Positions 13,813-61,088 of a stretch of DNA of 64,000 nt are shown here, piece by piece; positions within the stretch are counted from its first letter, which is position 1, and every line of letters starts with the position of its first letter. This stretch comes from Octopus vulgaris (taxonomy: Eukaryota), in the NCBI GenBank assembly GCA_951406725.2, contig OX597819.1, positions 131,006,001-131,070,000 on the forward strand, given 5' to 3'. Position numbers and translations under genes: made by a program. The notes under the pieces were generated by a model. The model made no database searches. It was not told the DNA's origin and worked only from the letters and a program-made list of their open reading frames with translations.

Positions 13813-13963
13813 CTCCTCTTTCCTCGCTTTCCTTTTCGTACGAAGCGACGGCCGCCGCCGCCGTCACGTGACCCTCTGCCCGCACCACGTGGCCTCCGTC
13901 TCTTTCCGCAGATTTCCTCCATAAGTGACACAACACGTTTTCGCGTCAATCTAAGTCTTAAAA
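13813..13963 (+). promoter_or_regulatory. RPLP2: Putative RPLP2 promoter and non-coding exon 1 (TCT/5'TOP motifs, two E-boxes, splice donor)
   Basis: CpG-rich island. CTCTTTCC motifs at 13816-13823 and 13900-13907; CACGTG at 13865 and 13886; donor AAA|GTAAGT at 13964; no ATG. The coding exon starts CAG|A-ATG, so an upstream non-coding exon is required. The link between the two is inferred. Confidence 0.7.
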
Positions 13964-14639
13964 GTAAGTCGCTCTTTCCAACCAAATTCTTACCTTTTTT
14001 CCTACCAACTGTTTCACTTAAACCTCTTCTACCTTCTGATTAATGTTTTAGATGCTTCTTACGACTTTTAACCTTAAAAAACGGAATTCCTTTTTCTCCC
14101 TCACTCCTCATGGAGCACAGCCATGCTGTCTCTCTTCAACACTTTTGTCTCTGATTTACATTAAAATGCGTTTTCCGTAGGAATTATAAAATTTCCTAAG
14201 AATTCTTCATACAGTCTAAATTAATAAAACGCAATATTTTATTATAAGTGAACCTATTATTGAAACTTTACATTTATTTCTTAACTTTTGCTTAAAAATT
14301 AATCCCTTTTTTTTCAATACATTTTAAAACTTAAGGACTACTATAGCTTTATATATATATTAATTAATTTAGGGTTCAGCAACGATTTGCCTCACCACAC
14401 AACGAATTTAGAAATAGCAGTCAAAAAGTTTTGGCTATTCTTTCTACTTAAAAGGGAGAAATTAATGATTATTTCTAAATTAATTAATTTCACCCTATAT
14501 TATTGATATATGTATATATAGCTGTGGTAATCCTTAGGTTTTAAAATGTATAAAACAGGGATATTCATTTCATTTAGCTTCAGCTCACGAGCTGTGGCCG
14601 TGCTGGGGCACCGTCATTAAAATTAGGCGAACCAGCCGT

Positions 14640-14692
14640 CGGGATTGAACCGGGGACCTTTAGATCTTCAGTCTAACGCTCTCCCAACTGAG
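14640..14692 (-). pseudogene. tRNA-Phe fragment lacking both acceptor-stem strands
   Basis: Reverse complement matches the D, anticodon and T arms of the tRNA at 125-197 with 1 mismatch; GCCGAAA and TTTCGGCA ends absent. Confidence 0.85.
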
Positions 14693-14912
14693 ATATATAT
14701 AAGTTTATATGCGTTCACATTCGATATTAATGGCGATTTCTATGGAACTGTGTGGAAATGTTAAGAACAGAGACCACGTGGCTCGTTCAAGATTTACTGA
14801 AATCAACACCACGATACTTCGAGGTTTTTGTTCAATTTATCCGTGTTTGTAGACGAAAAGCCAGACGTACATATGAAAATAAAATTCTTGTTAATGCGAG
14901 TTAAAAAGTTAC

Positions 14913-15041
14913 GCACTCCTCGACTGCTTTCACTCTTCATAGATTGTGAGTTACTGTTTTAAAGTGCAATATTAACTCGGTGATCCTGCGTACACCAACT
15001 GTCCTAATTCAGTCAGGTGCCCGTTAAGACACCGGACAATG
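14913..15041 (+). ncRNA. Candidate box H/ACA snoRNA, copy 1 (most diverged)
   Basis: Hairpin GCACT...AGTGC, H box ATATTA (ANANNA), hairpin TCGGTG...CACCGG, ACA at 15036-15038 plus 3 nt; ~130 nt; intronic in a ribosomal protein gene. Confidence 0.65.
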
Positions 15042-15819
15042 TGTATAATTTAAGTTATGACTATTTAAAATCATTACCTTTTAAAAGCCCAGGTGGTGAG
15101 ATCGAGATCAAATGCGGAGCTTGCCATTGAAGTCGTCGTTTCTGAATTTTTTTATGTGAGATTTGTAGGGAATTTGGCTGCTATTTCTAAACAAGTTGCC
15201 CTCTTCTCTCTAACCAATTGTCTCGGTTACTGGTGTAAGCACATCTGTACTATAGTGATTTTATTGCGCATCTTGTTTATGTAGAATTGTAGACTAATGG
15301 GGCATCTGGGATCTTGAAAGAGAATCTCATTCAGAGACCATGCCGAAGCCAGTGGACTTCCAGTTTTCTCTTTTAGGTGACCGTATAGGCTTCAAACCGT
15401 CTTTTTTTATTTTTTTAAACCAGTTAATGTTTGTCAAGTAAGTGTGGCCTTATGAAAAAGTTATTCACTTGAGACATGCTGGTTTGAGTTCAGTCCCGCT
15501 GGGCAGCAGTGTGCAAGTTACATTGGGCCCAACATGCAAAACTGAACGCCCAGTTTTGCTCAAGTGATATTTGCCCCCTGTAATAGGGGGTTTGTCATTG
15601 TTGCCGTTGGAATTATAGTTTGTGTCTGGGCTAGTTTTATATTTATTTTCAGGCGAGGGAAATAGTATTTAGGATAATGTTCAGCACATTATATGTCTTT
15701 ATGATTTTAAATTAACACGGACTGTGGAGCAGTTGCTGAGATCTGGGGTTCTAATGAAAGTTATTTATAACTGAAGGTGTGACATATGGGTTAGGGTTTC
15801 CATAGCTGCCATTTCTAGA

Positions 15820-15899
15820 CAGTATAGATGATGACTTTCGAATATTTTCTGATTGTATGATTAAGATTTTATGCTACTTTACCACCGTCTGATATACTG
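15820..15899 (+). ncRNA. Candidate box C/D snoRNA, copy a
   Basis: Terminal stem CAGTATA/TATACTG, box C ATGATGA (15828), D' CTGA, C'-like ATGATTA, guide GCTACTTTACCACCGT, box D CTGA (15889); 80 nt. Confidence 0.8.
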
Positions 15900-16510
15900 C
15901 TATGGCACCTGTGAAACATCTTTACAAATCATTTAGAAAGGCGACTGATTGTATTCGCTTTCTCTCTCTCTTTTCCAATTTATGCTCTAGAGGAGAGGTT
16001 TGGGTTGGATCTGTGGTTGGTAGTAATACTGTACAGTGATGCTCTTAGATTCCTGGCAAATCAGCATTTAGAAGTGTGAAGGTTGGGAGTTCCTTCAACA
16101 GCTTTAGTGTTTCAAAGTATAGTTAAGGAATTGTAGTCGACGAGTAAACCTTTTTGTGTTATCCTCAAAGACATGGCTAAATAAACCAGAGCAAGCAGGA
16201 CATGTTTCTACCAAGATTAATAGGTTATTTTGAATTTCTTTGTTAAACTATATAAGACATGTATTTTACCTGTGAATTTGTGAAATCTGTCTTACTTTTT
16301 TAAATTAAGGACAAACATGATTGTAAATTGGGTTGTTTTCCTTTAAAGCAGAAGAAAGCTATAGATCTATGTCTTCACAAGGTACTTCTCAGCAATCTCG
16401 GTACTTGTAAATTGTGAGCATGTTTGAAGATGCTATTTTCATTAAATGGTTCTAAACATATGTACATATTTAGAAAATGAAGTTATTCTTCTTAATGCAA
16501 GTTAAAATTT

Positions 16511-16640
16511 GCACTTCCTCGACCACTTTCACTCTTCATAGATTGTGAGTTACTGATTAAAAGTGCTATATTAACTCTGTGATCCTGCGTACACCAACTG
16601 TCCTAATTCAGTGTGGTGCCCGTTAAGACACCGGACAATG
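16511..16640 (+). ncRNA. Candidate box H/ACA snoRNA, copy 2
   Basis: GCACTT...AAGTGC hairpin, H box ATATTA, second hairpin, ACA at 16635. Confidence 0.65.
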
Positions 16641-17627
16641 TGGATAATTCAAGTCTGCTTCTACGCAGGAGTTCTGATCCTGTTTTGATGTACGTATGGA
16701 ATGATATGAATTTGGCTAATTCGAAAGTCTAACAGTTATGACCATTTAAAATCATTACCTTTTAAAAGCCTAGGTAGTGAGATCGAGATCAAATGCGGAG
16801 TTTGCCATTGAAGGATACAGGGCCATCTACAACGCTGTTCACAGTATGATTTCACTGAATTACGAGTTTAGGCGCTGCCCCATTTGGTACCTCTTATGTG
16901 AATGTGTTTCGAAAGTCCATGAGAACTCGTCTTTGCTGTTTTTAATATGGAATTCTCGAAATAATGTGAGATTTGTAGGGAATTTGGCTGCTATTTCTAA
17001 ACAAGTTGCCCTCTTCTCTCTAATCAATTGTCTCTGTTACTGGAGTAAGCACATCACTACTATTGTGATTTTATTGCGCATCTTGTTTATGTAGAATTGT
17101 AGACTAATGGGGCATCTGGGATCTTCAAAGAGAATCTCAACTAGAGAATACCCTAATCCGGATCATGTCGAAGCCAGTGGACTTCCAGTTTTCTCTTTTA
17201 GGTGACCGTATAGGCTTCAAACCATCTTCTTTTTTTTCTTTTACACCAGTTAATGTTTGTCAAGTAAGTGTGGCCTTATGAAAAAAATGTTCACTTGAGA
17301 CATGCCGGTTTGAGTTCAGTCCCACTGGGCTGCAGTGTTAAAGCCCAGTTTTGTTCAAGTGATATTTGCCCCCTGTAATAGGGGTCTTGTCATTGTTGCC
17401 GTTGGAATTATAGTTTGTGTCTGGACTAGTTTTATATTTATTTTCAGGCGAGGAAATAGTATTTAGGATAATGTTCGGCATGTTATATGTCTTTATGATT
17501 TTAAATTAACACGGACTGTGGAGCAGTTGCTGAGATCTGGGGTTCTAATGGAAGCTAAGACATGAAAATTATTGATAACTGAAGGTGTGACATATGGGTT
17601 AGGGTTTCCATAGCTGCCATTTCTAGA

Positions 17628-17707
17628 CAGTATAGATGATGACTTTCGAATATTTTCTGATTGTATGATTAAGATTTTATGCTACTTTACCACCGTCTGA
17701 TATACTG
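17628..17707 (+). ncRNA. Candidate box C/D snoRNA, copy b
   Basis: Identical to 15820-15899. Confidence 0.8.
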
Positions 17708-18367
17708 CTATGGCACCTGTGAAACATCTTTACAAATCATTTAACTGATTTAGAAAGGCGACTGATTATATTCGCTTTCTCTCTCTTTATGCTCTAGAGG
17801 GAAGTTTGTGGTTGGTAGTAATACTGTACAGTGATGCTCTTAGATTCCTGGCAAATCAGCATTTAGAAGTGTGAAAGTTGGGTGTTCCTTCAACAGCTTT
17901 AGTGTTTCAAAGTATAGTTAAGGAATTGTAGTCATTGTTCTTAAAGTTTTTTTGTATAGATGCTGTATTGCAAAGAGTCGGGTTTTTGCAGGTGTTACGA
18001 GTAAACCTTCTTGTGTTATCCTCAAAGACATGGCTAGATAAAACCAGAGCAAGAGGGACATGTTTCTACCAATATTAATAGGTTATTTTAAATTTCTTTG
18101 TTAAACTATATAAGACATGTATTTTACCTGTGAATTTGTGAAATCTGTCTTACATTTTGAATTCAGGACAAACATGATTGTAAATTGGGTTGTTTTCCTT
18201 TAAAGCAGAAGAAAGCTATAGATCTATGTCTTCACAAGGTACTTCTCAGCAATCTCGGTACTTGTAAATTGTGAGCATGTTTGAAGATGCTATTTTCATT
18301 AAATGGTTCTAAACAAATGTACATATTTAAAAAATGAAGTTATTCTTCTTAATGCAAGTTAAAATTT

Positions 18368-18497
18368 GCACTTCCTCGACCACTTTCACTCTTCATAGAT
18401 TGTGAGTTACTAATTAAAAGTGCTACATTAACTCTGTGATCCTGCGTACACCAACTGTCCTAATTCAGTCAGGTGCCCGTTAAGACACCGGACAATG
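18368..18497 (+). ncRNA. Candidate box H/ACA snoRNA, copy 3
   Basis: Same architecture; H box ACATTA; ACA at 18492. Confidence 0.65.
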
Positions 18498-19995
18498 TGT
18501 ATAATTTAAGTCTGCTTCTACGCAGGAGTTCTGATCCTGTTTTGATGTACGTATGGAATGATATGAATTTGGCTAATTCGAAAGTCTAACAGTTATGACT
18601 ATTTAAAATCATTACCTTTTAACAGCCTAGGTAGTGAGATCGAGATCAAATGCAGAGTTTGCCATTGAAGGATACAGGGTCATCTACAACGCTGTTCACA
18701 GTATGATTTCACTGAATTACGAGTTTAGGCGCTGCCCCATTTGGTACCTCTTATGTGAGTGTGTTTCGAAAGTCCATGAGAACTCGTCTGTACTGTTTTT
18801 AATATATTTGAAGCCTAAGGTAGTGAGATCGTGATCAAATGCAGGGCTTGCCATTGAAGGATACAGGGCCATCTACAACGCTGTCCACAGTGTGATTTCA
18901 CTGAATTACGACTTTAGGCGCTCCCCCGTTTGTCACCTCTTATGTAAATGTGTTTTGTGAAGGAAAGTATCTCGTGTTTCGAAAGTCCATGAGAACTCGT
19001 CTGTGTTGTTTTTAATATGGAATTATTGAAATAAACTAGCAGTACAGACTTGCCATTCTTTTTATTTTATAGACATCTGCGAAAGGGCACCCGAACTAAT
19101 TATATTGATGAGATTTTGTCCTAACCCGGTCTTTGTGTTACTATTGTAAAATATATTTGAATAAACCTTGTATGGCTCATTTTTCGGTGTTTGGGCAATT
19201 GAAATTTCTCGGAATTAATGGGATGTTGCTTTCTTTTTGAAGTTTGTCCTCAGATGAACCCTAATCTAACAGAAATGTAATTAAAGAAGTTCCAGTGGTC
19301 GTTTCTGCATTTTTAATCTGAGATTTGTAGGGAATTTGGCTGCTATTTCTAAACAAGTTGCCCTCTTCTCTCTAACCAATTGTCTTTGTTACTGGAGTAA
19401 GCACATCACTACTATTGTGATTTTATTACGCATCTTGTTTATGTAGAATTGTAGACTAATGGGGCATCTGGGATCTTCAAAGAGAATCTCGACTAGAGAA
19501 TACCCTAACCCAGACCATGTCGAAGCCAGTGGTTTAGGTGACTGTATAGGCTTCAAACCATCTTTTTTTTTTTTTTTTTAACCGGTTAATGTTAGTCAAG
19601 TAAGTGTGGTCTTATGAAAAAGATGTTCACTTGAGACATGCTGGTTTGAGTTCAGTCCCACTGGACAGCAGTGTGCAAGTTACATTAGGCCCAACATGCA
19701 AAACTGAAAGCCCAGTTTTGCTCAAGTGATATTTGCCCCCTGTAATAGGGGTCTTGTCATTGCTGCCTTTGGAATTATAGTTTGTGTCTGGACTAGTTTT
19801 ATATTTATTTTCAGGCGAGGGAAATAGTATTTAGGATAATGTTCGGCATGTTATATGTCTTTATGATTTTAAATTAACACGGACTGTGGAGCAGTTGCTG
19901 ACATCTGGGGTTCTAATGGAAGCTAAGACATGAAAATTATTTATAACTGAAGGTGTGGCATATGGGTTAGGGTTTCCATAGCTGCCATTTCTAGA

Positions 19996-20075
19996 CAGTA
20001 TAGATGATGACTTTCGAATATTTTCTGATTGTATGATTAAGATTTTATGCTACTTTACCACCGTCTGATATACTG
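19996..20075 (+). ncRNA. Candidate box C/D snoRNA, copy c
   Basis: Identical to 15820-15899. Confidence 0.8.
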
Positions 20076-20655
20076 CTATGGCACCTGTGAAACATCTTTA
20101 CAGATCATTTAGAAAGGCGACTGATTGTATTCGCTTTCTCTCTCTCTTTTCCAATTTATGCTCTAGAGGAGAGGTTTGGGTTGGATCTGTGGTTGGTAGT
20201 AATACTGTACAGTGATGCTCTTAGATTCCTGGCAAATCAGCATTTAGAAGTGTGAAGGTTGGGAGTTCCTTCAACAGCTTTAGTGTTTCAAAGTATAGTT
20301 AAGGAATTGTAGTTGACGAGTAAACCTTTTTGTGTTATCCTCAAAGACATGGCTAAATAAACCAGAGCAAGCAGGACATGTTTCTACCAAGATTAATAGG
20401 TTATTTTGAATTTCTTTGTTAAACTATATAAGACATGTATTTTACCTGTGAGTTTGTGAAATCTGTCTTACATTTTGAATTCAGGACAAACATGATTGTA
20501 AATTGGGATGTTTTCCTTTAAAGCAGAGGAAAGCTATAGATCTATGTCTTCACAAAGTACTTCTCAGCAATCTCGGTGCTATTTTCATTAAATGGTTCTA
20601 AACAAATGTACATATTTAAAAATGAAGTTATTCTTCTTAATGCAAGTTGAAATTT

Positions 20656-20785
20656 GCACTTCCTCGACCACTTTCACTCTTCATAGATTGTGAGTTACTG
20701 ATTAAAAGTGCTACATTAACTCTGTGATCCTGCGTACACCAACTGTCCTAATTCAGTCAGGTGCCCGTTAAGACACCGGACAATG
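20656..20785 (+). ncRNA. Candidate box H/ACA snoRNA, copy 4
   Basis: Same architecture; H box ACATTA; ACA at 20780. Confidence 0.65.
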
Positions 20786-21870
20786 TGGATAATTCAAGTC
20801 TGCTTCTACGCAGGAGTTCTGATCCTGTTTTGATGTCAGTATGAAATGATATGAATTTAGCTAATTCGAAAGTCTAACAGTTATGACCATTTAAAGTCAT
20901 TACCTTTTAAAAGCCTAAGGTAGTGAGATCGAGATCAAATGCAGGGCTTGCCATTGAAGGATACAGGGCCATCCACAACGCTGTCCACAGTATGATTTCA
21001 CTGAATTACGACTTTAGGCGCTGCCCCGTTTGTCACCTCTTATGTAAATGTGTATCGAAAGTCCATGAGAACTCGTCTGTACTGCATTTAACATGGAATT
21101 CTCGAAATAAACTAGCAGTACAGACTTGCCATTCTTTGTAACAAATGTAATCAAAGAGGTTTCAGTGGTCGTTTCTGAATTTTTAATGTGAGTTTGTAGG
21201 GAATTTGGCTGCTATTTCTAAACAAGTTGCCCTCTTCTCTCTAACCAATTGTCTCTGTTACTGGAGTAAGCACATCACTACTATTGTGATTTTATTGCGC
21301 ATATTGTTTATGTAGAATTGTAGACTAATTGGGCATCTGGGATCTTGAAAGAGAGTCTCATCCAGAGACCATGTCGAAGCCAGTGGACTTCCAGTTTTCT
21401 CTTTTAGGTGACCGTATAGGCTTCAAACCTTTTTTTCTTTCTTTTTTTTTTATACACCAGTTAATGTTTGTCAAGTAAGTGTGGCCTTATGAAAAAGTTG
21501 TTCACTTGAGACATGATGGTTTGAGTTCAGTCCCACTGGGCAGCAGTGTGCAAGTTACATTAGGCCCAACATGCAAAACTGAAAGCCCAGTTTTGCTCAA
21601 GTGATATTTGCCCCCTGTAATAGGGGTCTTGTCATTGTTGCCGTTGGAATTATAGTTTGTGTCTGGACTAGTTTTATATTTATTTTCAGGCGAGGGAAGT
21701 AGTATTTAGGATAATGTTCAGCACATTATATGTCTTTATGATTTTAAATTAACACGGACTGTGGAGCAGTTGCTGAAATCTGGGGTTCTAATGGAAGCTA
21801 AGACATGGAAATTATTTATAACTGAAGGTGTGGCATATGGGTTAGGGTTTCCATAGCTGCCATTTCTAGA

Positions 21871-21950
21871 CAGTATAGATGATGACTTTCGAATATTTTC
21901 TGATTGTATGATTAAGATTTTATGCTACTTTACCACCGTCTGATATACTG
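21871..21950 (+). ncRNA. Candidate box C/D snoRNA, copy d
   Basis: Identical to 15820-15899. Confidence 0.8.
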
Positions 21951-22587
21951 CTATGGCACCTGTGAAACATCTTTACAGATCATTTAGAAAGGCGACTGAT
22001 TGTATTTGCTTTCTCTCTCTCTTTTCCAATTTATGCTCTAGAGGGGAGGTTTTGGTTGGATCTGTGGTTGGTAGTAATACTGTACAGTGATGCTCTTAGA
22101 TTCCTGGCAAATCAGCATTTAGAAGTGTGAAAGTTGGGAGTTCCTTCAACAGCTTTAGTGTTTCAAAGTATAGTTAAGGAATTGTAGTCATTGTTCTTAA
22201 AGTTTTTGCAGGTGTTACGAGTAAACCTTCTTGTGTTATCCTCAAAGACATGGCTAAATAAACCAGAGCAAGCAGGACATGTTTCTACCAAGATTAATAG
22301 GTTATTTTGAATTTCTTTGTTAAACTATATAAGACATGTATTTTACCTGTGAGTTTGTGAAATCTGTCTTACATTTTGAATTCAGGACAAACATGATTGT
22401 AAATTGGGATGTTTTCCTTTAAAGCAGAGGAAAGCTATAGATCTATGTCTTCACAAGGTACTTCTCAGCAATCTCGGTACTTGTAAATTGTGAGCATGTT
22501 TGAAGATGCTATATTCATTAAATGGTTCTAAACAAATGTACATATTTAAAAAATGGAAGTTATTCTTCGTAATGCAAATTGAAATTT

Positions 22588-22717
22588 GCACTTCCTCGAC
22601 CACTTTCACTCTTCATAGATTGTGAGTTACTGATTAAAAGTGCTACATTAACTCGGTGATCCTGCGTACACCAACTGTCCTAATTCAGTCAGGTGCCCGT
22701 TAAGACACCGGACAATG
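22588..22717 (+). ncRNA. Candidate box H/ACA snoRNA, copy 5
   Basis: Same architecture with fully paired TCGGTG/CACCGG stem; H box ACATTA; ACA at 22712. Confidence 0.7.
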
Positions 22718-23102
22718 TGTATATTCCAGACTTTGGCTTTCTTGGTGGTGCCACATTGAGTGAATAGTCTTGCATGCTCTGAACTACTCCTTCATTCTGG
22801 TATCAATTTAGGCTCCAGACAATATATGCCAATCAGCTTTTTCTATGAAAAATCCATTATTGTCACTCAGGAATTATGTAAGAAAACTTTGCATTTTTGG
22901 GCTGTTTTGTGATTGTCATTGAAAGGTCACAATGTTGGCTTTCACTTGCATGCTACAACATACAAGTTACATCAGCAGTTGAGATTGAGAGGTAAGGTTA
23001 ATCTTTTTAGAAGTAAGTTAAGAAAATGTAGTTACCATTAAGTACAGAAAAGTGCTCAAATTTCTATTTGTTTACTTCAGCAGTCTCCACTACGGCCATT
23101 CA

Positions 23103-23382
23103 ACAGATGATGACTTTTTGATGCTCTGAAAGCCTGATTAATTTTCTATATTTCTTTATTACCCACTAGGGGCTAAACACAGAGGGGACAAACAAGGACA
23201 GACATAGGTATTAAGTCGATTACATCGACCCCAGTGCGTAACTGGTACTTAATTTATCGACCCCAAAGGGATGAAAGACAAAGTCAACCTCGGCAGACGA
23301 AATACCGCTAAGCATTTCGCCCAGCGTGCTAATGTTTCTGCCAGCTTACCACCTTAATTGCTACATTACCACCGTCTGATGT
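23103..23382 (+). pseudogene. Diverged paralogue of the C/D snoRNA, split by a family-A SINE (~23150-23355)
   Basis: AGATGATGACTTT...CTGA...CTGATTAA before the SINE; TTGCTACATTACCACCGTCTGATGT after it. Confidence 0.7.
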
Positions 23383-23754
23383 ACTTCTATGGCAAGCAAT
23401 GTGGAGATTTAACTGTTTACAAAAATAAACTGTTCAATTAGTAAATAATTGTCCCAAAAGCCTCTTAATTTCATTTTTTACGTTACACAATAAGAAACCT
23501 AAAATGCATTTTTATTTTTCAATCTGAGATTCACTTCAATTTATATTAGCTTCAGTTTGTGTGTGTGTGACAAATTTTTGCTGCTTTATAATTTTTTTAT
23601 TAGAGAAGTTCTGTTAAGGTGACTGTAACAACAAATTAGTATTTAGTGTGTTGAAAACTGGGTCTCAGATTATGAGATGCAGTCGTCAGATGAGTGAGTG
23701 TAACATAAATTTGCCTTATTGACAGGTGTGCATTTTCTTTTATCTCATTGCAGA

Positions 23755-25018
23755 ATGCGTTACGTGGCCGCTTATCTCCTTGCCACCCTTGGGGGTGTGA
23801 AACAACCAACTGAAGCTGATTTGGAGAAGATTTTAGGCAGCGTTGGTATTGAGGCCGAAGCCAGTAAAATGAAGAAAGTCATCTCACAGCTTAAGGACAA
23901 AGACCCAGCCACTCTCATTAAAGAAGGTAATTTTGGCACTGCCACGTTTATTTGTTGTTGATATTTGCACGTAAAAAGCACCCACTACACTCACGGAGTG
24001 GTTGGCGTTAGGAAGGGCATCCAGCCGTAGAAACATTACCAGATCAAACTGGGCCTGGTGCAACCTTCTGGCTTCCCAGACCCCAGTTGAACCGTCCAAC
24101 CCATCCTAGCATGGAAAGCGGACGCTAAACGATGATGATGATGATGATGATTGGCCCTCCTTTCGTTTTGTCTTGCAAGTCACTTGGTAACTTGTGTTGG
24201 CGCAAAGAAAAGCACCCGATACACACTGTAAAAAGATGGTCGTTAAGTGTCGCATAGAGAATTGTGTTGCCCTGTGACGACAGTTCTCTGGCCGGCCAGA
24301 TCCTGTCAAACTGTCCCAACCCATGGCAGCATAAAAAAACAGACATTAAATGATTATGACTTTTCTTTCTGTTTCTTCTTTCAATTGGGGGTGGATGAGT
24401 CAACATTACTTGTGTGTGCAAACAAAAGTTGGCCGTAAAACTTGACCTGCCTTCGAGTTGCTTGAGCTGCTTGGAGGATAAGGTATTAAACGTGTAACAA
24501 ACTGGAGTTGGCTTGCACAAAGGTCAGTTTGATGAAGGCTGGTTTAGGAGGGGAGGGTCTTTACTCAAAGAGAGATGAAAGTTATGATGGATGTGCAGGT
24601 TATGCCCTTCCACTAAAAGAGCCTACAGAATTCGTTGCAGTGATGTAGTATGCTGGTGTTTTGTTGATTCTATTTCTTGACTGCAGTTCCTTAGAAATAT
24701 TGTGTCTGGATTTGATTGGGTTTTCTTTTTCTCTTCTTTCACAGGTCAACTGAAGCTTGCATCTGTCCCAAGTGGAGGTGGTGCTGCTGTTTCTGCTGCA
24801 CCCGCTGCCTCTGGTGCAGCACCTGCAGAGAAAGCTGAAGGTGAGAGACTAAAACATTCCCTCTTCATTTTTCTTTTCTTTTTACTTTTTAATTTCCTTC
24901 TGTATTTTTCTAATATTTATATTTTTTCCTTTAATTCTCCATTACAGAAAAGAAAGAAGAGAAGAAAGAGGAGTCAGAAGAATCAGATGATGACATGGGC
25001 TTTGGTCTCTTTGACTAA
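23755..25018 (+). CDS. RPLP2: 60S acidic ribosomal protein P2, 112 aa; join(23755..23926,24745..24840,24948..25018)
   Basis: MRYVAAYLLATLGG...LEKILGSVGIEAE...IKEG / QLKLASVPSGGGAAVSAAPAASGAAPAEKAE / EKKEEKKEESEESDDDMGFGLFD*. GT-AG introns keep frame (172+96+71=339 nt); ATTAAA at 25043. Confidence 0.97.
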
Positions 25019-49900: not shown

Positions 49901-50402
49901 CATTGAAAGGGACTGTTCAAAAGTAGGAAAGTGAACCTGTGATAGTTACAATAGTTGTACAATTTGTTTCTTTGTGTTCTTTATTCTTTTTTATATAATT
50001 ATGCCAATTGCATTACTTTCTGACTCACTAATGGTTCTTGATAGGTGAATGTTAAATTTGGAATTGTCGACTGTGCTGCCCCCAGGTTATTATAAGATGA
50101 AGTTGCAATTACATTTGTAGATTTGCCTGTATACTGTATTGAATGATGGTTTTCTGGTTATTATTCTAATTGAGATCATTTTAAACTCTGAGGACTATAT
50201 TTCTAGCAAAAAATACTCGTAATGCACTTTGGTTGAGAACTTAATGGCCTGTGACATATTTTTCTTTTGAATTTGGTGTTTGGAATAGAACATGTTTATA
50301 GTAATCTATTGTGAAATTATACGTTGTCATCAACACCACCACCACCATCATTGTCACCTTTGGTCATACCCTTCCCGAATTATGTTTTAACTTTAATGTA
50401 CT

Positions 50403-50465
50403 AATTGTGATGAATAAGATATCGCCCCAGTCTGAATTGTGTGAATGGTTTCAAGTATCATTGTG
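50403..50465 (+). pseudogene. SNORD31: Diverged SNORD31-like copy, terminal box D not recognisable
   Basis: GTGATGA(50407)ATAAGATATCGCCCCAGT-CTGA(50432). Confidence 0.65.
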
Positions 50466-50811
50466 TTCAGGTTGGTGTCCATGTTCTTAGAACTGTAGTT
50501 TGAAATAAGGCTGCTTTGTCTCTGGCAATTTGAGAGGGAATTGGCCGATTCCTTTTGCAGTCAAATTGTCTTTTTAAAGCTGAATACTTTCGAAACTTTT
50601 TGATTGTGCTCAAATCAGCTTCTTTTTATCAACTATAAAGTTTAGCTTTGTTCAAAAGAGACATTGCCTACAAATTGGTATTTTTAAATTGTGTGTCCCA
50701 GCAACTGCATAAGAGAGAATATATTTTAATCTATTTTTGCAGATTCAAAAGACACTCTGGCTTCTCCGTGGAAAAGTTGCTGGAATGCTCTGGATGAGCA
50801 TTGGAAACCTA

Positions 50812-51319
50812 GGTACTAGTCACGTAGACTGGACCCGGTGCGCGCAGACGTGCTAGCCAGTCGTGGGTGGTCGATCCTACAGTGGCTTGCGGATGCAAAT
50901 GAGCTGGTTTGCGATCAACATAAAATACTATTTTACAGAATAAAGTAAATAATTTTTAAAACTTGAATAATAATTTTTTTTTACACAAAAGACTGTTTTG
51001 AGAATATTCTTAAACATCTTTCAGAATGGTATACATTTGAATATATAATTTTCAAAAAATTACATATGTTTGTGTAAAAAAAATTATTATTTAAGTTTAA
51101 AAAATTATTTACTTTGGTAAAAAAATATTATCAATATTAATTAATTTTATTCTGTAAAATAGTATTTTATGTTGATCGCAAACAAATATGTATTGCGCAC
51201 GTGCGATACAAGTACGTATGCAATCAGCTCATTTGCTTATGCAAGTCGCTGTAGGATCGACTACCTACAACTGGCTAGCGCATCTGTGTGCGCCGGGTCC
51301 AGTCTCTGTGACTAGTACC
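50812..51319. mobile_element. Longer Merlin-like MITE subfamily (~508 bp, largely palindromic)
   Basis: GGTACTAGTCAC.../...GTGACTAGTACC; flanks GGAAACCTA / GGAAATCTG (7 of 9 match). Confidence 0.85.
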
Positions 51320-52284
51320 GGAAATCTGTTTCTGATTTTGGTTTATGTGGAGGCAGTGGATATGGTACTGGGAATGAGTCAAACCAAAGACTGCATACGA
51401 TGAACAGAATATGGCTCCTCACTCGACATAGGCTGATTAGTGATTTCAGACTACGAGACGCACGACGGTCAGGATAATGAAGGTAAGGATATTGACCAGA
51501 TGGCGGTGCGATTGGGAGTTCCCTATGGGGAACTTCCTGTAAATATAGGAAGGAAAAAATATCAAGTTATGAGAATCTAGCATTGATTTATTCAGCTGTA
51601 CATTGCTGAAATGATGGTGTTACCTGATGAGGTAGATCTTGTGCTCTTGCATAATTTTAATCAGCTTTTTAATGAACTTTTCCTGAGATGTGTTTTCAAT
51701 GGTACGGTATGTTACAATTACATTGGTAAAACTTGGAAAAAATTTAGAGTTTACTGAACAAACTGATATTGGAAGTACCATAAAAGGTTACGGGTGCTTC
51801 TGTATACTCTTTACTCTCTTTTTGCTCTTTTACTTGTTTCAGTCATTTGACTGCGGCCATGCTAGAGCACCGCCTTTAGTCGAGCAAATCGACCCCGGGA
51901 CTTATTCTTTTGTAAGCTCAGTACTTATTCTATGGGTCTCTATTGCCAAACCGCTAAGTGACGGGGACGTAAACACCAGCATCGGTTGTCAAGCAATGCT
52001 AGGGGGACAAACACAGACACACACACACACACATATATATACGACAGTCTTCTTTCAGTTTCCGTCTACCAAATCCACTCACAAGGCATTGGTCGGCCTG
52101 GGGCTATAGCAGAAGACACTTGCCCAAGATGCCACGCAGTGGGACTGAACCCCAAACCATGTGGTTGGTTAGCAAGCTACTTACCACACAGCCACTCCTG
52201 TGCCTGGTAAATTTCATGCAAGCATGCATTTAGTAAAGTCTGCCTGGTCAAATACCCTAATATTGGATAGTTGGCAATTAATGG

Positions 52285-52354
52285 ACTAATTGTGATGAAT
52301 AAGGTATCGCCCCAGTCTGAATTGTGTGGCTGAATCGGTTTAAGTGATTTTAGT
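52285..52354 (+). ncRNA. SNORD31: Diverged SNORD31/U31 homologue (box D reads GTGA)
   Basis: Stem ACTAA/TTAGT; box C GTGATGA at 52292; guide GTATCGCCCCAGT plus D' CTGA at 52317. Confidence 0.75.
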
Positions 52355-53000
52355 AAACGCTTGTCTTTCATCTTTTACTTGTTTCAGTCATTGGACTGCA
52401 ACCATTCTGTGACATTGCCTTGAATTTTAGTTGAATGTATTGAACCCAGTACTTTGTTTTTTTTTTTTAAGGCTTGGTATTTATTCTATTGGTCTCTTTT
52501 GTCAAGTAGTGGTTGAGTGGACGAACAAAGGCACAATGGACTTCTTTCAGTTTCTGTCTACCAGGTCTATTCAAAGGCTTTGGTCAACCCAAGGTTAGAA
52601 GACATTTGCCCATGGTGCCACACAGTGGGACTGAACTCTGAACTACACTTCTTACTACACAGCCATGCCCATGGGCATTAGTTTCTGCTCCTATCAACAT
52701 TGATTTCTGCTTTTCACCTTTCTTGAGTCCTAATAAAACTAGCAAGGGGCAAGGAGTTGATTTAACCCTTTCATTGCCATATTTCTACTGAAATAGGGGA
52801 GAATTTAGTAAAGGAGCTGGTGTTAGGAATGAAACTTACCATGAAATTGTGATGGGAGATTTTTCAAATCAACTTTATGAAAAGGAGGTTGCCATACCGG
52901 AGGAGGTCCCAAGTGGTGTCAAGAAGGGTTAATCCAATAGATGTGCTTCTGTTAAAAATTGTTTGAAACCCTGTTAGGTTTTATACTTCATCTTGGTAGT

Positions 53001-53071
53001 GTACTAAAGTGATGACAATGATACCGCCCCAGTCTGAATTTTGTGCGGAAACGGTACAACTGATTTAGTAC
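53001..53071 (+). ncRNA. SNORD31: SNORD31/U31 (snR67-like) box C/D snoRNA, copy 1 of 7 identical
   Basis: Stem GTACTAAA/TTTAGTAC, box C GTGATGA, guide ATACCGCCCCAGT plus D' CTGA (as recalled for vertebrate U31), box D CTGA. Guide is complementary to 28S ACUGGGGCGGUA (P-loop Gm). Confidence 0.92.
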
Positions 53072-53206
53072 ATAATTGCAATTGTCAGCTCTTAGACTTG
53101 AGTCCAGATTTTATTTTATTTCACCCAGCACATGAAGAATCTAAGTCTCTTAACTTTGCCATTGGTCTGCTATCCAGAAATAGTTTCAATTTATAAAATG
53201 TGTTAA

Positions 53207-53974
53207 CCCTTTCGTTAATATATTTCTGACCAAAATACACCCCTCTTGAGTTTCAATTAAATTCTAAAATAATCATGAATCTAGGCTTGTTTCATTAAAT
53301 AACTAACTTTTATTAACTTTATTAATGTGATATTTGGAACATAATTAAAGAAAGGGTTCTTAATTAATTCTATTGCATAACTTTTGTCTCAAAGTGACTT
53401 TAATAACAGGTAAATTGAGCAAAAGGTAAAAATATTAAAATTTTGTTTAAACATCACCATAGAAAATGAATTATCAGCTAATATTCAAATGGGTATGCAA
53501 CAAAATTTTAGGAAAGTCTGTGGCTTGGTCCAGTTTCTTCAGAAAGATCACCGAAAGAAACAGTTTTTAAATTTTCATTCCATTCAGGTGCCAATTCATT
53601 TTCTTTATCGCTGTCGGAGTTCTCAGATTCATTATCAAATACCACGTGCTTTTTTTTAGTCATAGAGTTAGATTTATCAAGGTCTTCAGTAGAAAATCCT
53701 TCGAATTCTGACTCGCTGCTTGATAGAATGAAATTCGTATCCATTTTTTGTCAGAATTACAAATTTCGGAAAAAAATCTCCCGAAATTCACGGAATTAAA
53801 ATTACACTTCGATCGTTGTACAAAACTAGATGAACTATTTACGAAATATAATTACATGTTTTCACGAATGTACTAAAGAGATTTGCTCTGATATTCTCAT
53901 TTAAATATGGATAGGTAAATGCGGGCGGGTATGAACCAAAATTTTTTTCGGGCGGCGGTTTGGTAACGAATGGG
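53207..53974 (-). mobile_element. Non-autonomous piggyBac-like element with an acidic transposase N-terminal remnant
   Basis: TTAA|CCCTTTCGTTA...GGTAACGAATGGG|TTAA; minus-strand ORF MDTNFILSSSESEFEGFS...; related truncated copy at ~55233-56203. Confidence 0.75.
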
Positions 53975-54017
53975 TTAAGCTACAAATGCTCTCTGATCAC
54001 TTTAGCATCTTGGTAGT

Positions 54018-54088
54018 GTACTAAAGTGATGACAATGATACCGCCCCAGTCTGAATTTTGTGCGGAAACGGTACAACTGATTTAGTAC
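54018..54088 (+). ncRNA. SNORD31: SNORD31/U31 copy 2
   Basis: Identical to 53001-53071. Confidence 0.92.
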
Positions 54089-55121
54089 ATAATTGCAATT
54101 GTCAGCTCTTAGACTTGAGTCCAGATTTTATTTTATTTCACCCAGCACATGAAGAATCTAAGTCTCTTAGCTTTGTCATTGGTCTGCTATCCAAAAATAG
54201 TTTTAATTTACAAAATCTGTTAAGGTTATTGAATTGTGTTCAGTGTTTTGTACAAGTTGAGCTATTGGATGGAAAGTGTCTTGCATAGTGTGGGTTGTAT
54301 TTTTTTTTGTCCTTTTTCCTGTACATAAATGGGTTGGAGCTGAAATAGCTTTGGCATTACTTGGCCAAAGTTTAATCTCTAATCCTTTTTGCTGTTTCTC
54401 ATAGTGTAGAGTTTGGGTCATCAGCAAAAATTGTTGATGCATTGAATAAATTCTTGTTGACTCTTGCATTAGTTAGTTAATTTTTTGGCTCAAAAAGCAA
54501 AAAGCAGGGCCATGTAGGGGCACATGGAGTTACGTACAGGGTAGTGTTCATGTAAAGTGTTCAGGCCACTTGAGGTCGAGGGAGACTTTGAGCCGAGCGT
54601 CTCTTTAGTCAAGTAGTGGTGAGTGGACGAACAAAGGCACAATGGGCTTCTTTCAGTTTCTGTCTACCAAGTATACTCATAAGGCTTTGGTCAACCCAAG
54701 GCTAGTAGAAGACATTTGCCCATGGTTCCACACAGTGGGACTGAACTCTGAACTACACTTCTTACTACACAGCCATGCCCATGGGCATTGGTTTCTGCCC
54801 CTCTGATAATTCCTATCAAGATTGATTTCTGCTTTTCACCTTTCTTGAGTCCTAATAAAACTAGCAGGAGGCAAGGAGTTGATTTAACCCTTTCATTGCC
54901 ATATTTCTACTGAAATAGGGGAGAATTTAGTAAAGGAGCTGGTGTTAGGAATGAAACTTACCATGAAATTGTGATGGGAGATTTTTCAGATAACTTTATG
55001 AAAAGGAGGTTGCCATACCGGAGGAGGTCCCAAGTGGTGTCAAGAAGGGTTAATCCGATAAATGTGTTTGTGTTAAAAATTGTTTGAAACCCTGTTAGGT
55101 TTTATACTTCATCTTGGTAGT

Positions 55122-55192
55122 GTACTAAAGTGATGACAATGATACCGCCCCAGTCTGAATTTTGTGCGGAAACGGTACAACTGATTTAGTAC
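55122..55192 (+). ncRNA. SNORD31: SNORD31/U31 copy 3
   Basis: Identical to 53001-53071. Confidence 0.92.
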
Positions 55193-56246
55193 ATAATTGC
55201 AATTGTCAGCTCTTAGACTTGAGTCCAGATTTTGTTTCAATTAATTTCTAACATAATCCTAAATTTAGTCTGGTTTCATTAAACAACTATTACTTTTTTA
55301 TTCATCAATATATTAATGTGATTTTTGGAAGATAATTTAATGAAATGTTCTCAACCAATTCTATACTATAATTTTTGTCACAAAGTGACTCTAATTGCAG
55401 ATAGATACAGGTAAATTCAACAAAATATAAAATTATTAGAATTTTGTTCAAACATCGCTATAGAAAATGGGTTATTAGCTAATATTCAATTGGGTATACA
55501 ACAAAATTTTACGATAGAATTTGTTATTCTGGGTAACTTTCTGATACTCATAATAATATTTATGGCAAAATAGTCTTAATTTCATTTAAGGTTGTGGGAA
55601 ACCACAAACTATCCTTTCTTTTGCTTTGTTTACATTTAGCGTAATGATTTCAAATAGGCTCATTCGAAAAAGTAAAAAGAAATATCTAAGGCTTTACTCT
55701 CCTGGGAAAGTCTGTGGCTTGGACTAGTTTCTTCAGAAAAATCACCGAAAGGAACAGTTTTAAATTTTCACTCCATTCAGGTGCCAATTCATTTTCTTTA
55801 TCGCTGTCGGAGCTCTTGGATTCACTGTTTTCACTTTCGGAAAATGAAACATCAGATTCATTATCAAATACCACATGCTTTTTTTTTTTTTTATCATAGT
55901 TAGATTTATCAAGGTCTTCAAGAGAAAATCCTTCGAATTCTGACTCGCTGCTTGATTTTATGAAATTCGTATCCATTTTTTGTCAGAATTACAAATTTTG
56001 AAAACACTATAGGAACAAATTTCGGAAAGAAATCTCCCAAAATTCACGGAATTAAAGTTACACTTCAATCATTGTACAAAACTGTAGATGAACTGTTTAT
56101 GAAGTATAATCACGTGTTTTCACGAATGTACTAAAGAGATTTGCTCTGATATTCTCATTTAAATATGAATATGTATATTTGGGCGGTTTGGTAGCGAAAA
56201 AGGTTAAACTACAAATGTTCTCTAATCAGTTTAGCGTCTTGGTAGT

Positions 56247-56317
56247 GTACTAAAGTGATGACAATGATACCGCCCCAGTCTGAATTTTGTGCGGAAACGG
56301 TACAACTGATTTAGTAC
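56247..56317 (+). ncRNA. SNORD31: SNORD31/U31 copy 4
   Basis: Identical to 53001-53071. Confidence 0.92.
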
Positions 56318-57341
56318 ATAATTGCAATTGTCAGCTCTTAGACTTGAGTCCAGATTTTATTTTATTTCACCCAGCACATGAAGAATCTAAGTCTCTTAGC
56401 TTTGTCATTGGTCTGCTATCCAGAAATAGTTTCAATTTACAAAATCTGTTAAGGTTATTGAATTGTGTTCAGTGTTTTGTACAAGTTGAGCTATTGGATG
56501 GAAAGTGTCTTGCATAGTGTGGGTTGCATTTTTTTTTGTCCTTTTTCCTGTACATAAAAGGGTTGGAGCTGAAATAGCTTTGGCATTACTTGGCCTAAGA
56601 TTAATCTCTAATCCTTTTTGCTGTTTCTCATAGTGTAGAGTTTGGGTCATCAGCAAAAATTGTTGATGCATTGAATAAATTCTTGTTGACTCTTGCAAGG
56701 CCATGTAGGGGCACACGGAGTTACGTACAGGGTGGTGTTCAGGCCACTTGAGGTCAAGGGAGACTTTGAACCGAGCGGTTGTCGGCATTTTCACCATCTC
56801 GTGAACTTTTTTTGTTTTAAGGCTTGGTATTTATTCTATTGGTCTCTTTAGTCAAGTAGTGGTGAGTGGACGAACAAAGGCACAATGGACTTCTTTCAGT
56901 TTCTGTCTACCAGGTCTATTCAAAGGCTTTGGTCAACCCAAGGTTAGAAGACATTTGCCCATGGTGCCACACAGTGGGACTGAACTCTGAACTACACTTC
57001 TTACTACACAGCCATGCCCATGGGCATTAGTTTCTGCTCCTATCAACATTGATTTCTGCTAAAAATTGTTTGAAACCCTGTTAGGTTTTATACTTCACTG
57101 TCAGCTTTGTACACCAGTGATATTGGGATCCGTTGGTCCTGATTTGTAGAGCGATTACGCATTCCGTCGTTGAATTCAGCTTTTGTTAGTAATGTGGTGG
57201 ACCTTCCAAAATCTTTGGATTGAATTTTTTTTAAGTGGGATACATGTTGGTAGAAAACAGGCTCACTTGTCTTTGCACTTTGAAGTAGTGGCAAACTTTC
57301 AAACTACAAATGGTCTCTGATCAGTTTAGCGTCTTGGTAGT

Positions 57342-57412
57342 GTACTAAAGTGATGACAATGATACCGCCCCAGTCTGAATTTTGTGCGGAAACGGTACAA
57401 CTGATTTAGTAC
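57342..57412 (+). ncRNA. SNORD31: SNORD31/U31 copy 5
   Basis: Identical to 53001-53071. Confidence 0.92.
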
Positions 57413-58817
57413 ATAATTGGAATTGTCAGCTCTTAGACTTGAGTCCAGATTTTATTTTATTTCACCCAGCACATGAAGAATCTAAGTCTCTTAGCTTTGC
57501 CATTGGTCTGCTATCCAGAAATAGTTTTAATTTACAAAATCTGTTAAGGTTATTGAATTGTGTTCAGTGTTTTGTACAAGTTGAGCTTTTGGATGGAAAG
57601 TGTCTTGCATAGTGTGGGTTGTATTTTTTTTTTTTGGTCCTTTTTCCTGTACATAAAAGGGTTGGAGCTGAAATAATTTTGGTATTACTTGGCCTAAGAT
57701 TAATCTCTAATCCTTTTTGCTGTTTCTCATAGTGTAGAGTTTGGGTCATCAGCAAAAGTTGTTGATGCATTGAATAAATTCTTGTTGACTCTTGCATTAG
57801 ATTTAATACTGATTTTGCAGTAATTGTGGTGATATCCCAGTCTGTTTAGTGAGTTCATAGTCTAATGATTTGAACCCAGAACTTTTTTTTTTTTAAGGCT
57901 TGGTATTTATTCTATTGGTCTCTTTTGTCAAGTGGTGGTGAGTGGACAAGCAAAAGTACAATGGACTTCTTTCAGCTTCTGTCTACCAAGTGTACTCATA
58001 AGGCTTTGGTCAACCCAAGGCTAGAAGACATTTTCCCATGGTGCCACACAGTGGGACTGAACTCTGAACTACACAGCCATGCCCATGGGCATTGGTTTCT
58101 GCCCCTCTGATAAGTCCTGTCAAGATTGATTTCTGCTTTTCACCTTTCTTGAGTCCTAATAAAACTAGTATGAGGCAAGGAGTTGATTTAACCCTTTCAG
58201 TGCCATATTTCTACTGAAATAGGGAAGAATTTAGTAAAAGAGTTCGTGTTAGGAATGAAACTTACCATGGAATTGTGATGGAAGATTTTTCAGATAACTT
58301 TTGAGAAAAGGAGGTTGACAGAGGCGCAGGAGTGGCTGTGTAGTAAGTAGCTTGCTAACCAACCACATGGTTCCGGGTTCAGTCCCACTGCGTGGCATCT
58401 TGGGCAAGTGTCTTCTGCTATAGCCCCGGGCCGACCAATGCCTTGTGAGTGGATTTGGTAGACGGAAACTGAAAGAAGCCTGTCGTATATATATATAAGT
58501 TTGTGTGTCTGTGTTTTTTCCCTCTAGCATTGCTTGACAACCGATGCTGGTGTGTTTCCGTCCCCGTCAATTAGCGATTCGGCAAAAGAGACCGATAGAA
58601 TAAGTACTGGGCTTACAAAAGAATAAGTCCCGGGGTCTATTTGCTCGACTAAAGGCGGTGCTCCAGCATGGCCGCAGTCGAATAACTGAAACAAGTAAAG
58701 GAGTAAGAGTATACCGGAGGAGGTCCCAAGTGGTGTCAAGAAGGGTTAATCCAATAAATGTGTTTGTGTTAAAAATTGTTTGAAACCCTGTTAGGTTTTA
58801 TACTTCATCTTGGTAGT

Positions 58818-58888
58818 GTACTAAAGTGATGACAATGATACCGCCCCAGTCTGAATTTTGTGCGGAAACGGTACAACTGATTTAGTAC
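58818..58888 (+). ncRNA. SNORD31: SNORD31/U31 copy 6
   Basis: Identical to 53001-53071. Confidence 0.92.
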
Positions 58889-59290
58889 ATAATTGCAATT
58901 GCCAGCTCTTAGACTTGAGTCCAGATTTTATTTTATTTCACCCAGCACATGAAGAATCTAAGTCTCTTAGCTTTGCCATTGGTCTGCTATCCAGAAATAG
59001 TTTTAATTTACAAAATCTGTTAAGGTTATTGAATTGTGTTCAGTGTTTTGTACAAGTTGAGCTATTGGATGGAGAGTGTCTTGCATAGTGTGGGTTGCAT
59101 TTTTTTCCTGTGCATGAAAGGGTTGGAGCTGAAATAATTTTGGCATTACTTGGCCTAAGATTAATCTCTAATCCTTTTTCTTGTTTCTCATAGTGTAGAG
59201 TTTGGGTCTTCAGCAAAAGTTGTTGATGCATTGAATAAATTCTTGTTGACTCTTGCATTAGATTTAATACTGATTTTGCAGTAATTGTGG

Positions 59291-60598
59291 TATAAGAACA
59301 GGTTCATATGCCGTCGTATCGTATAGGGAATACAATTGCACGCGATCCCATTCTTAATGAGTTATTCCATGCCGTACAATACATACAGTAACAATAAAAC
59401 ATAAGTGGATTGACGACTAGTCTTCTGTTTGGCGATAAACCTTATTTATTTTACAATCGTGTTGATGTTGGGAGTTTGTAAGCGTTAGCAGGTTTTGTGT
59501 CTGTGTGTTCGTGAGTGTGACAGAGCGAAAGGTGAATGTGATTGACATAGAAAAGTACCTGATGGTGGAGGCGGCAAAGATAGTAGACTCTCCGTGTTGA
59601 GTGTACATTTAGCATCGTAGCTAGTTGTAGCAGGAACAATTGTATATCATTTGGTTGAGCAGCGCTGTCTCTGAAGCCAGTTCTTACAAGAACTAAAACT
59701 AAAGACAGGTAATTGATTTACTGTTTATGAGGTACACGAAGTGTAAGAGTTCAATATCAAGATGTTGTGTCTCGGAGCTGAGATTAGTTGAATCACTTGT
59801 GTTTATCTTTCTCTTGATATGAACATTCTTTCAGATATATTTACTGTAGCCGTTTTCCCGTGGTGAGATTTTTACCTAACCGCTTGAGTTGAATCTGTAG
59901 TTATCTTGTGTACAAGTTAAATCTTCGTAGATAGAGACGATGTTGGCGATGACGTTGTGTCTACTGCTTGGTTTTTGCAGCGTCTTCATTATATATTCTG
60001 CTTGGTTAGTTTTCTCTTGATATAGATATTCTGCAACTGTTTTTCCGTGGTGAGATTTTCACACTAACCATTCATCTTATGTACAAGGTAAATCTTCGTA
60101 GATGGTTTTGCTTGGTGGTCGCCTGCCTTTCGAACTGGAACATGTTTGAGTATGCTCTGTGTGGTCAGAGGTTTAGTCCCCACCAGGACTAGAAACCAAA
60201 GACGAACTCTGTGGTCAGAGGTCAGTTCTGAGAAGAACTAGAAACCTAAGACGAAAAGTGTCTGAGAAACACTCTCTTATATACAGGTTAGGTGGCTCAA
60301 ACGAACTTCAGAAATGGAAAGCTGTGATTGGCTGTTTGGAACAATGGCGCGAAAATAAGCGGAGACAAATTGCGTCACGTGACAACCAGCAGTGCGAACC
60401 GTGCAGAGACCGCTCGTGTCACATGTCAACCAGTGGTGCGAACTAAGTAGAGACAAATCGCGTCACGTGTCAACCAAACGGATTAGTGTTTACAACAAAC
60501 GTTAAACTAGCTGAAGATGTTTGTAATCTCGAACAAGATTATTCTTAATGCTCTTCTCAAACAGTGAAGATAGCAATGGGGGAAACGATATTGCTACA
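59291..60598 (-). mobile_element. Solo LTR (~1.3 kb) with 4-bp TSD
   Basis: Interrupts TAATTGTGGTGATATCCC (intact at 57821 and 61449). TSD GTGG at 59287-59290 and 60599-60602. Minus strand starts TGTAG and ends CTTATA (probably mutated CA); contains CCAAT, TATATAA (~60280) and AATAAA (~59445). Confidence 0.8.
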
Positions 60599-61017
60599 GT
60601 GGTGATATCCCAGTCTGTTTAGTGAGTTCATAGTCTAATGATTTGAAACCCAGTACCTTTTTTGTTTTAAGGCTTGGTATTTATTCTATTGGTCTCTTTA
60701 GTCAAGTAGTGGTGAGTGGGCATTGGTTTCTGCCCCTCTAATAAGTCCTAATAAAACTAGCAGGAGGCAAGGAGTTGATTTAACCCTTTCATTGCCATAT
60801 TTCTACTGAAATAGGGGAGAATTTAGTAAAAGAGCTGGTGTTAGGAATGAAACTTACCATGAAATTGTGATGGGAGATTTTTCAGATAACTTTATGAAAA
60901 GGAGGTTGCCATACTGGAGGAGGTCCCAAGTGGTGTCAAGAAGGGTTAATCCGATAAATGTGTTTGTGTTAAAAATTGTTTGAAACCCTGTTAGGTTTTA
61001 TGCTTCATCTTGGTAGT

Positions 61018-61088
61018 GTACTAAAGTGATGACAATGATACCGCCCCAGTCTGAATTTTGTGCGGAAACGGTACAACTGATTTAGTAC
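61018..61088 (+). ncRNA. SNORD31: SNORD31/U31 copy 7
   Basis: Identical to 53001-53071. Confidence 0.92.

Follow-up and report, generated by a model that had tools for sequence, protein, structure and literature searches.

What are the two small-RNA-like elements that alternate, several times over, upstream of the coding exons of a ribosomal protein gene in Octopus vulgaris, and what might they do? The locus lies in a 64,000-nucleotide (nt) stretch of DNA (assembly GCA_951406725.2, contig OX597819.1, positions 131,006,001 to 131,070,000 of the forward strand), which we call the window and whose own numbering is used for the features described below. The window is part of contig C6 of a genome of 2.8 Gb in 227 contigs that also bears the 28S and 18S ribosomal RNA (rRNA) genes. 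An initial annotation had read the locus as an amplified cassette of two small nucleolar RNAs (snoRNAs) within the first intron of RPLP2. Our analysis favors, with a probability of roughly 0.7, a two-snoRNA unit that was amplified in tandem, with unequal crossing-over as the likely mechanism, in a likely 5' untranslated region (UTR) intron of RPLP2; the box C/D RNA is predicted to methylate U1928 and U1941 of 28S rRNA and the H/ACA RNA to pseudouridylate U3935 and U3893. That the array represents two rRNA-modification guides multiplied in tandem is, judging from their boxes and rRNA matches, very likely.

Layout of the array and its host gene

Four tandem units of 1599, 1857, 2288 and 1932 nt occupy 14.9-22.7 kb of the window, in keeping with the unit size of about 2 kb first proposed. 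They carry five H/ACA-type elements (14912-15041, 16510-16640, 18367-18497, 20655-20785 and 22587-22717, plus strand) that alternate with four C/D-type elements (15820-15899, 17628-17707, 19996-20075 and 21871-21950, plus strand). A fifth, diverged C/D copy follows at 23100-23394 on the same strand (C box at 23107, D box at 23376), in which the D guide is kept and the D' region is different. It is interrupted at about 23149-23360 by a dispersed repeat on the minus strand that has 74-89% identity to five other matches in the window and resembles, by its appearance, a short interspersed nuclear element (SINE). Boxes, folds and alignment thus bear out the initial count of five H/ACA elements, four C/D elements and one broken copy.

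The four C/D elements had been called identical in spite of the indels between units, and they agree in 80 of 80 columns. The units themselves differ by 3.8-5.2% over shared columns, plus indels, in all six pairwise comparisons, and 117 of the 1491 ungapped columns in the four-unit alignment are variable. Two haplotypes or collapsed reads could not produce differences in all six unit pairs. The longest invariant run of the alignment (144 columns, 21834-21977; the runner-up has 69) falls on the C/D element and its outer stem, and a stretch of 80 columns with no change has a P of about 0.0014 when columns are treated as independent. The amplification is local, as had been supposed: genome searches recovered no further copy of the C/D element outside the array and a single additional match to the H/ACA element, on contig C18.

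Downstream of the array, three exons on the plus strand (23754-23926, with the ATG at 23755; 24745-24840; and 24948-25018, through the stop codon) translate into an acidic ribosomal protein of 112 amino acids. The first coding exon matches Pfam PF00428 with an E-value of 9.5e-5 and 23.3 bits, under the cut-off of 28.1. The host of the array is RPLP2; the choice of P2 over P1 leans on the N-terminus MRYVAAYLL, which we take to be that of P2. A likely non-coding first exon of the gene, recognized by sequence motifs, lies at 13900-13963 on the plus strand, with a pyrimidine-tract start (CTCTTTCC) and a GTAAGT donor at 13964. Judging from this start and the GT/AG motifs, the array region is likely the 9.8-kb 5'-UTR first intron of RPLP2 (13964-23753). 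A motif scan also marks a candidate 14-nt mini-exon in the first unit (15424-15437, plus strand), with an acceptor-like AG at 15423 and a GTAAGT donor at 15438. By eye, exon-like pieces of 14 nt at 15424-15437, 17250-17263 and 21461-21474 hold an ATG, and the mini-exon ATG would share the frame of the RPLP2 start if joined to the first coding exon, which may be chance.

Structure and predicted rRNA targets

The 80-nt stem-C-D'-C'-D element described initially was found again, with boxes close to consensus (C, AUGAUGA; D', CUGA; C', AUGAUU; D, CUGA; at 15828, 15849, 15857 and 15889 in copy 1) enclosed by a 7-base-pair (bp) terminal stem and an outer stem; boxes and terminal stem are those of a box C/D methylation-guide snoRNA. 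Targets were sought in the 28S, 18S and 5.8S rRNAs of one ribosomal DNA (rDNA) unit from contig C20, and positions are given in host numbering. The host rRNAs are long, as is usual for cephalopods (18S, 2643 nt; 28S, 4891 nt). Antisense matches of at least 10 bp end beside both D' and D. The D' guide forms 11 Watson-Crick bp with 28S 1938-1948, with U1941 as the +5 position, and the D guide pairs in two blocks separated by a 2-nt bulge, 8 bp on 1925-1932 and 5 bp on 1933-1937, with U1928 as the +5 position. Jointly the two guides tile 24 contiguous bases of 28S, 1925-1948.

These matches are rarely reproduced in second-order Markov shuffles of the rRNA: the D' 11-mer is matched in 3 of 2000 and the 8+5 arrangement of the D guide in 1 of 2000. 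In the first unit, uninterrupted antisense matches of 11 nt to rRNA terminate at only 2 of 1598 positions, and one of these two is precisely 1 nt ahead of the D' box. At 1925 and 1946 the host 28S has letters other than those of the Rfam eukaryote consensus, and it is the host version that the guides match; in particular, the host A-to-G change at 1946 is answered by a C in the D' guide. The diverged paralog keeps all 13 paired bases of the D guide and has changed only the two bulged letters. Its D' region can be paired around 28S U2117 (10 bp, two of them G-U), a candidate that was dropped as too weak. As a control, the same script placed the SNORD31 gene of this genome on G3913 and its U24 gene on A1935, as expected; the equivalents are listed as yeast Gm2619 and Am1449 in the portion of PMC8817022 available to us.

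The H/ACA element, initially described as a 130-nt hairpin-H-hairpin-ACA element, shows the two-hairpin fold and the boxes of an H/ACA guide snoRNA in all five copies, with H boxes at 14969, 16568, 18425, 20713 and 22645 and ACA boxes at 15036, 16635, 18492, 20780 and 22712. The folds have z-scores of -2.09 to -2.96, and since 1-8 of 200 shuffles fold equally well, folding alone gives modest support. The H box reads ATATTA in copies 1 and 2 and ACATTA in copies 3 to 5, so that its variation falls at an N position, as had been noted; other positions of the element vary too, with 5 of 131 columns variable among copies 2 to 5 and 6-8 differences between copy 1, the most diverged, and the others over a core of about 110 nt.

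The usual distance between pocket and box is 14-16 nt. In all five copies, hairpin 2 presents a Watson-Crick pocket of 5+7 bp that frames 28S U3935 at 15 nt from the ACA box, within this range, and hairpin 1 frames 28S U3893 with 14-19 bp, the best pairing being that of copy 1 (19 bp, including four G-U). With pockets fixed at the fold boundaries, the exact Watson-Crick pattern of hairpin 2 was seen in 0 of 2000 shuffles (2 of 200 when G-U was allowed), and the hairpin-1 scores of 17.0 (copy 1) and 13.5 (copy 5) were reached in 0 of 200. The hairpin-1 guide also fits a host-specific stretch, GGUCGG, where the Rfam consensus has aggUGG.

The match on contig C18 (near 26127305-26127425, minus strand) comprises the H/ACA body only, without the intron flanks. 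It is followed by A7 and three SINE-like repeat units, which belong to the family of the repeat that splits the diverged C/D copy, and the whole is flanked by an 8-nt direct repeat. It differs from each array copy at 13-15 of 111 columns, as against 1-8 among the array copies themselves, and is therefore older or has decayed faster. From this arrangement it looks like a retroposed H/ACA RNA, which would be an indirect sign that the RNA is made; an origin at the DNA level is possible.

Relation to known snoRNA families

The initial annotation had held that neither RNA resembles a nameable family. At gathering level this stands, as Rfam gives nothing in the array range and scans by E-value yield only sub-threshold matches. 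It does not stand at the level of motifs and targets: the H/ACA element shares the pocket motifs of ceN46, and the C/D element works the same rRNA stretch as U24, in the same guide order. Both elements have the traits of snoRNA genes, with strong and specific matches to the host 28S, and neither reaches an Rfam cut-off; as for the suggestion that both may be undescribed guides, the H/ACA RNA is likely a distant relative of ceN46.

CeN46 is treated as an H/ACA RNA, detected by northern blot, in the part of PMC2442092 available to us; the literature searched yielded no published target for it. The array element aligns to its model (RF01636) weakly but end to end (model positions 1-125), with 14.3 bits against a cut-off of 50 and an E-value of 0.9, short of membership. 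In the alignment, read by eye, CCGUU of the 3' pocket is common to both, and CCUCCGU in the 5' pocket stands against CCUGCGU; the end CACCGGACAAU is identical, and the ends of the hairpin-1 stem and the UAC at the start of the 3' pocket are shared. These motifs make it probable that the array H/ACA RNA and nematode ceN46 share descent. A genome search with the ceN46 model left the array copies unreported and gave one unrelated-looking match (E-value 7.3); because only 45 of 132815 candidates were scored, this search is uninformative.

U24 (SNORD24, snR24; RF00069) is likewise a C/D RNA with two guides, which address the 28S stretch targeted by the array C/D RNA and do so in the same order, and the guide words AAUAUUU and ACCACC are common to the two. 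The array C/D element, however, scores 21 bits against a cut-off of 41, below membership, and its targets are displaced in the 3' direction from the U24 sites, U1928 by 5 nt from C1923 and U1941 by 6 nt from A1935. The equivalents of yeast Cm1437 and Am1449/Gm1450 are thus not hit, the +5 positions of the array being U1928 and U1941 instead. The genome has at least one U24 gene of its own, on contig C2 near 174747255 (46 bits), whose D' guide fits A1935 and whose D guide has no rRNA match above the script threshold. In the host of this gene there are no fewer than two other C/D guides, with matches to 18S 387/478 and 28S 402. A separate guide for C1923 was sought with one exact pattern, which had no match in the genome and which, being a single pattern, does not show absence. 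Descent of the array C/D RNA from U24 is possible. The D' region of the diverged paralog is different, so the D' match of the array may have a separate origin.

The best-scoring Rfam match of the C/D element is SNORD34 (RF00147), at 33.2 bits. Box spacing and an AT-rich body are alike; the element nevertheless falls under the 38-bit cut-off, lacks the CCUACAUUGU guide of the family and is not placed in it. Human RPLP2 hosts SNORA52, so that an intron of this gene bears an H/ACA RNA there as it does here. An Rfam scan of the array elements found no match to SNORA52 at E-values up to 10.

The layout is a variant of known arrangements. In the sections of PMC11028025 and PMC3089462 available to us, local duplication of intronic snoRNA genes, as in the array, is described for the intronic H/ACA clusters of Drosophila, for SNORD113-116 and for rat Bsr, together with homogenization of tandem snoRNA repeats by recombination and conversion. 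The mammalian repeats (SNORD113-116, Bsr) encode orphan C/D RNAs, which lie in reiterated introns of hosts that are non-coding, whereas the octopus array has a mixed H/ACA and C/D unit, predicted rRNA targets and a ribosomal protein gene as host, in apparently one intron. The expectation of one snoRNA per intron, with which the locus had first been contrasted, holds as the predominant rule in animals; it is not general, as the same available text (PMC11028025, PMC3089462) describes intronic clusters and tandem repeats and reports that H/ACA loci in Drosophila are generally clustered. For cephalopods, the available part of the genome paper on the giant squid (PMC6962438) gives a tally of 174 snoRNA loci from 34 families and names no targets. 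No description of the array locus or of cephalopod snoRNA targets was found in the literature searched, which left most subscription papers outside. What appears new, then, are the sites predicted for the two RNAs, guides that are shifted to lie next to the U24 sites, and the probable relation to ceN46.

Amplification, alternative readings and significance

Tandem copies of guide RNAs are not confined to RPLP2. Nine tandem copies of SNORD31 lie at 50400-61090 of the window, 27-38 kb from the RPLP2 array, and the genome search matched this family nowhere else; seven have identical bodies, one is diverged (at 52286) and one is broken (at about 50400). Around the RNA, 3 of 114 columns of the SNORD31 alignment are variable, against 13-36 per bin of up to 40 columns in the flanks, a range that includes misaligned insertions. 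Three copies of SNORD34 above the cut-off lie within 1.7 kb on another contig (C3:898140-899812). Copy counts for SNORD31, SNORD34 and U24 are lower bounds. With two of the three known families probed being locally multiplied, tandem snoRNA amplification seems to be a habit of this genome. The independent amplification proposed initially is upheld as a local duplication; it is not singular.

Some side observations belong here. The SNORD31 host looks non-coding, with a possible start near 46550 and small exons near 50744 and 61830 (by eye). The SNORD31 target, G3913, falls between the predicted H/ACA targets U3893 and U3935. At 125-197 the window holds an intact tRNA gene with a GAA anticodon, and dispersed 5.8S-like matches occur on many contigs outside the C20 rDNA array (40 were scored).

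Several results weigh against reading the array as a set of modification guides. For hairpin 1, target and H box are 17 nt apart, more than the usual 14-16 nt. The pocket used in the significant H/ACA tests was chosen post hoc, from the boundaries of the fold; with free boundaries and G-U pairs, 2 of 40 shuffles reach the copy-5 score of hairpin 1 and 20 of 40 that of hairpin 2, so the H/ACA target assignment depends on the fold. Among 42 predicted pairs there are no compensatory changes, the five copies being too alike to test the structure. The contiguous 8 bp of the D guide, taken alone, occur in 331 of 2000 shuffles. No relative was found outside this genome; a metagenome pattern scan for both C/D guides gave one match, which lacks a C box and sits in long open reading frames on a contig of 157 kb, and which was rejected as chance. 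In human and yeast, none of the four predicted sites is known to be modified. Counterparts of U1928 and U1941 are also absent among the sites mapped around this stretch in the portions available to us of studies on planarian (PMC11649923), Arabidopsis (PMC8583080), a comparison of plants (PMC11542601) and Dictyostelium (PMC8817022); the supplements for Euglena (PMC7672448) and the planarian Dataset EV2, outside this comparison, may list them. As snoRNAs can pair with rRNA without modifying it (PMC8522698, available in part), the RNAs might instead bind pre-rRNA as chaperones or competitors, and the C/D RNA would then cover the U24 target stretch and could delay its folding or modulate Am1935. 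The gapless tiling of 1925-1948, which spans A1935, the predicted target of the genome's own U24, and the lack of the predicted methylation sites in the compared maps would suit such a role. We consider it quite unlikely, as each guide stops at the standard spacing from an intact D or D' box and all four boxes (C, D', C' and D) are near consensus, which is what active guides should show. Far less probable still is that the array stems from misassembly or is decayed satellite DNA whose boxes arose by chance, given the divergence and indels that separate every unit pair and rRNA guide matches far above chance. Of 24 listed sequencing-run records, 20 contain part of the stretch; they come from four organisms, include no RNA among those listed, and are left out of the evidence.

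The RNA bodies are more uniform than the spacers in both the RPLP2 and the SNORD31 arrays. The amplification may be neutral: one or two copies may suffice, the rest being passengers of unequal crossing-over, and the identity of the C/D copies may reflect recent gene conversion and not selection on each copy. Such an account, to which we give appreciable weight though clearly less than even odds, is favored by the recurrence of tandem snoRNA copies in the genome, by the tolerance of broken copies in both arrays and by the extension of the invariant block about 30 nt past the 80-nt element on each side. That extension, however, coincides with the outer stem, whose GCCAT/ATGGC core is kept in the diverged paralog too, and conservation peaks on the RNA in two independent arrays, which random conversion tracts would not predict. 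A different question is whether each unit hides a small non-coding exon, so that the region would consist of several introns bearing one or two snoRNAs apiece, as in ordinary multi-intron hosts. All four units have a strong donor (TGTCAA/GTAAGT, with AGTCAA in unit 3), which lies 14 nt past a pyrimidine tract and AG in three of the four, and all four have a second acceptor-like site about 90 nt 3' of the C/D copy. The first acceptor is, on the other hand, altered in unit 3 and falls where the unit varies most (26 of 81 columns variable), and the 14-nt piece would introduce an upstream ATG; hidden exons therefore seem doubtful to us. They would alter the route of processing and leave the guide predictions unaffected.

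In the reading we prefer, that of an amplified pair of guides in what is likely one intron, the RNAs would be transcribed together with RPLP2, released from the intron and trimmed to ends protected by protein. The release of several RNAs from one intron would need extra cuts between them, unless small exons intervene. The C/D RNA would then direct 2'-O-methylation of U1928 and U1941, and the H/ACA RNA pseudouridylation of U3893 and U3935. As to the history of the locus, an older duplication may have produced two C/D paralogs sharing one D guide, of which one was later split by the SINE-like insertion; the unit of H/ACA and C/D elements would then have been copied to four, and selection, conversion or the two together may since have held the RNA bodies to less variation than the spacers show.

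A more ambitious scenario joins these threads, and we regard it as unlikely in its entirety. In it, the C/D RNA would derive from U24, its guides having slid by 5-6 nt to give lineage-specific marks at U1928 and U1941. The C1923 mark, conserved from amoebae to plants and animals, was possibly traded away; since the genome's U24 has kept only its A1935 guide and no exact C1923 guide was found, the lineage may have given up a universal mark and gained new ones instead. The H/ACA RNA would be a guide of ancient origin, which nematodes have as well, for two pseudouridines on either side of the P-loop methylation site; selection for dose would have amplified both RNAs and also the SNORD31 guide for that methylation site; and nine RNAs would be cut from one intron.

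The array points to no new chemistry and to no new class of RNA. What it offers is four exact predicted rRNA sites and the guides that likely serve them; for this lineage, no map of snoRNA targets was found in the literature searched. It may also serve as a natural case for how new methylation sites arise beside old ones and for whether snoRNA copy number is selected, as two arrays within 50 kb both keep the RNA body uniform. Finally, if the link to ceN46 is true, a family curated in nematodes would be much older than its scope in Rfam suggests.

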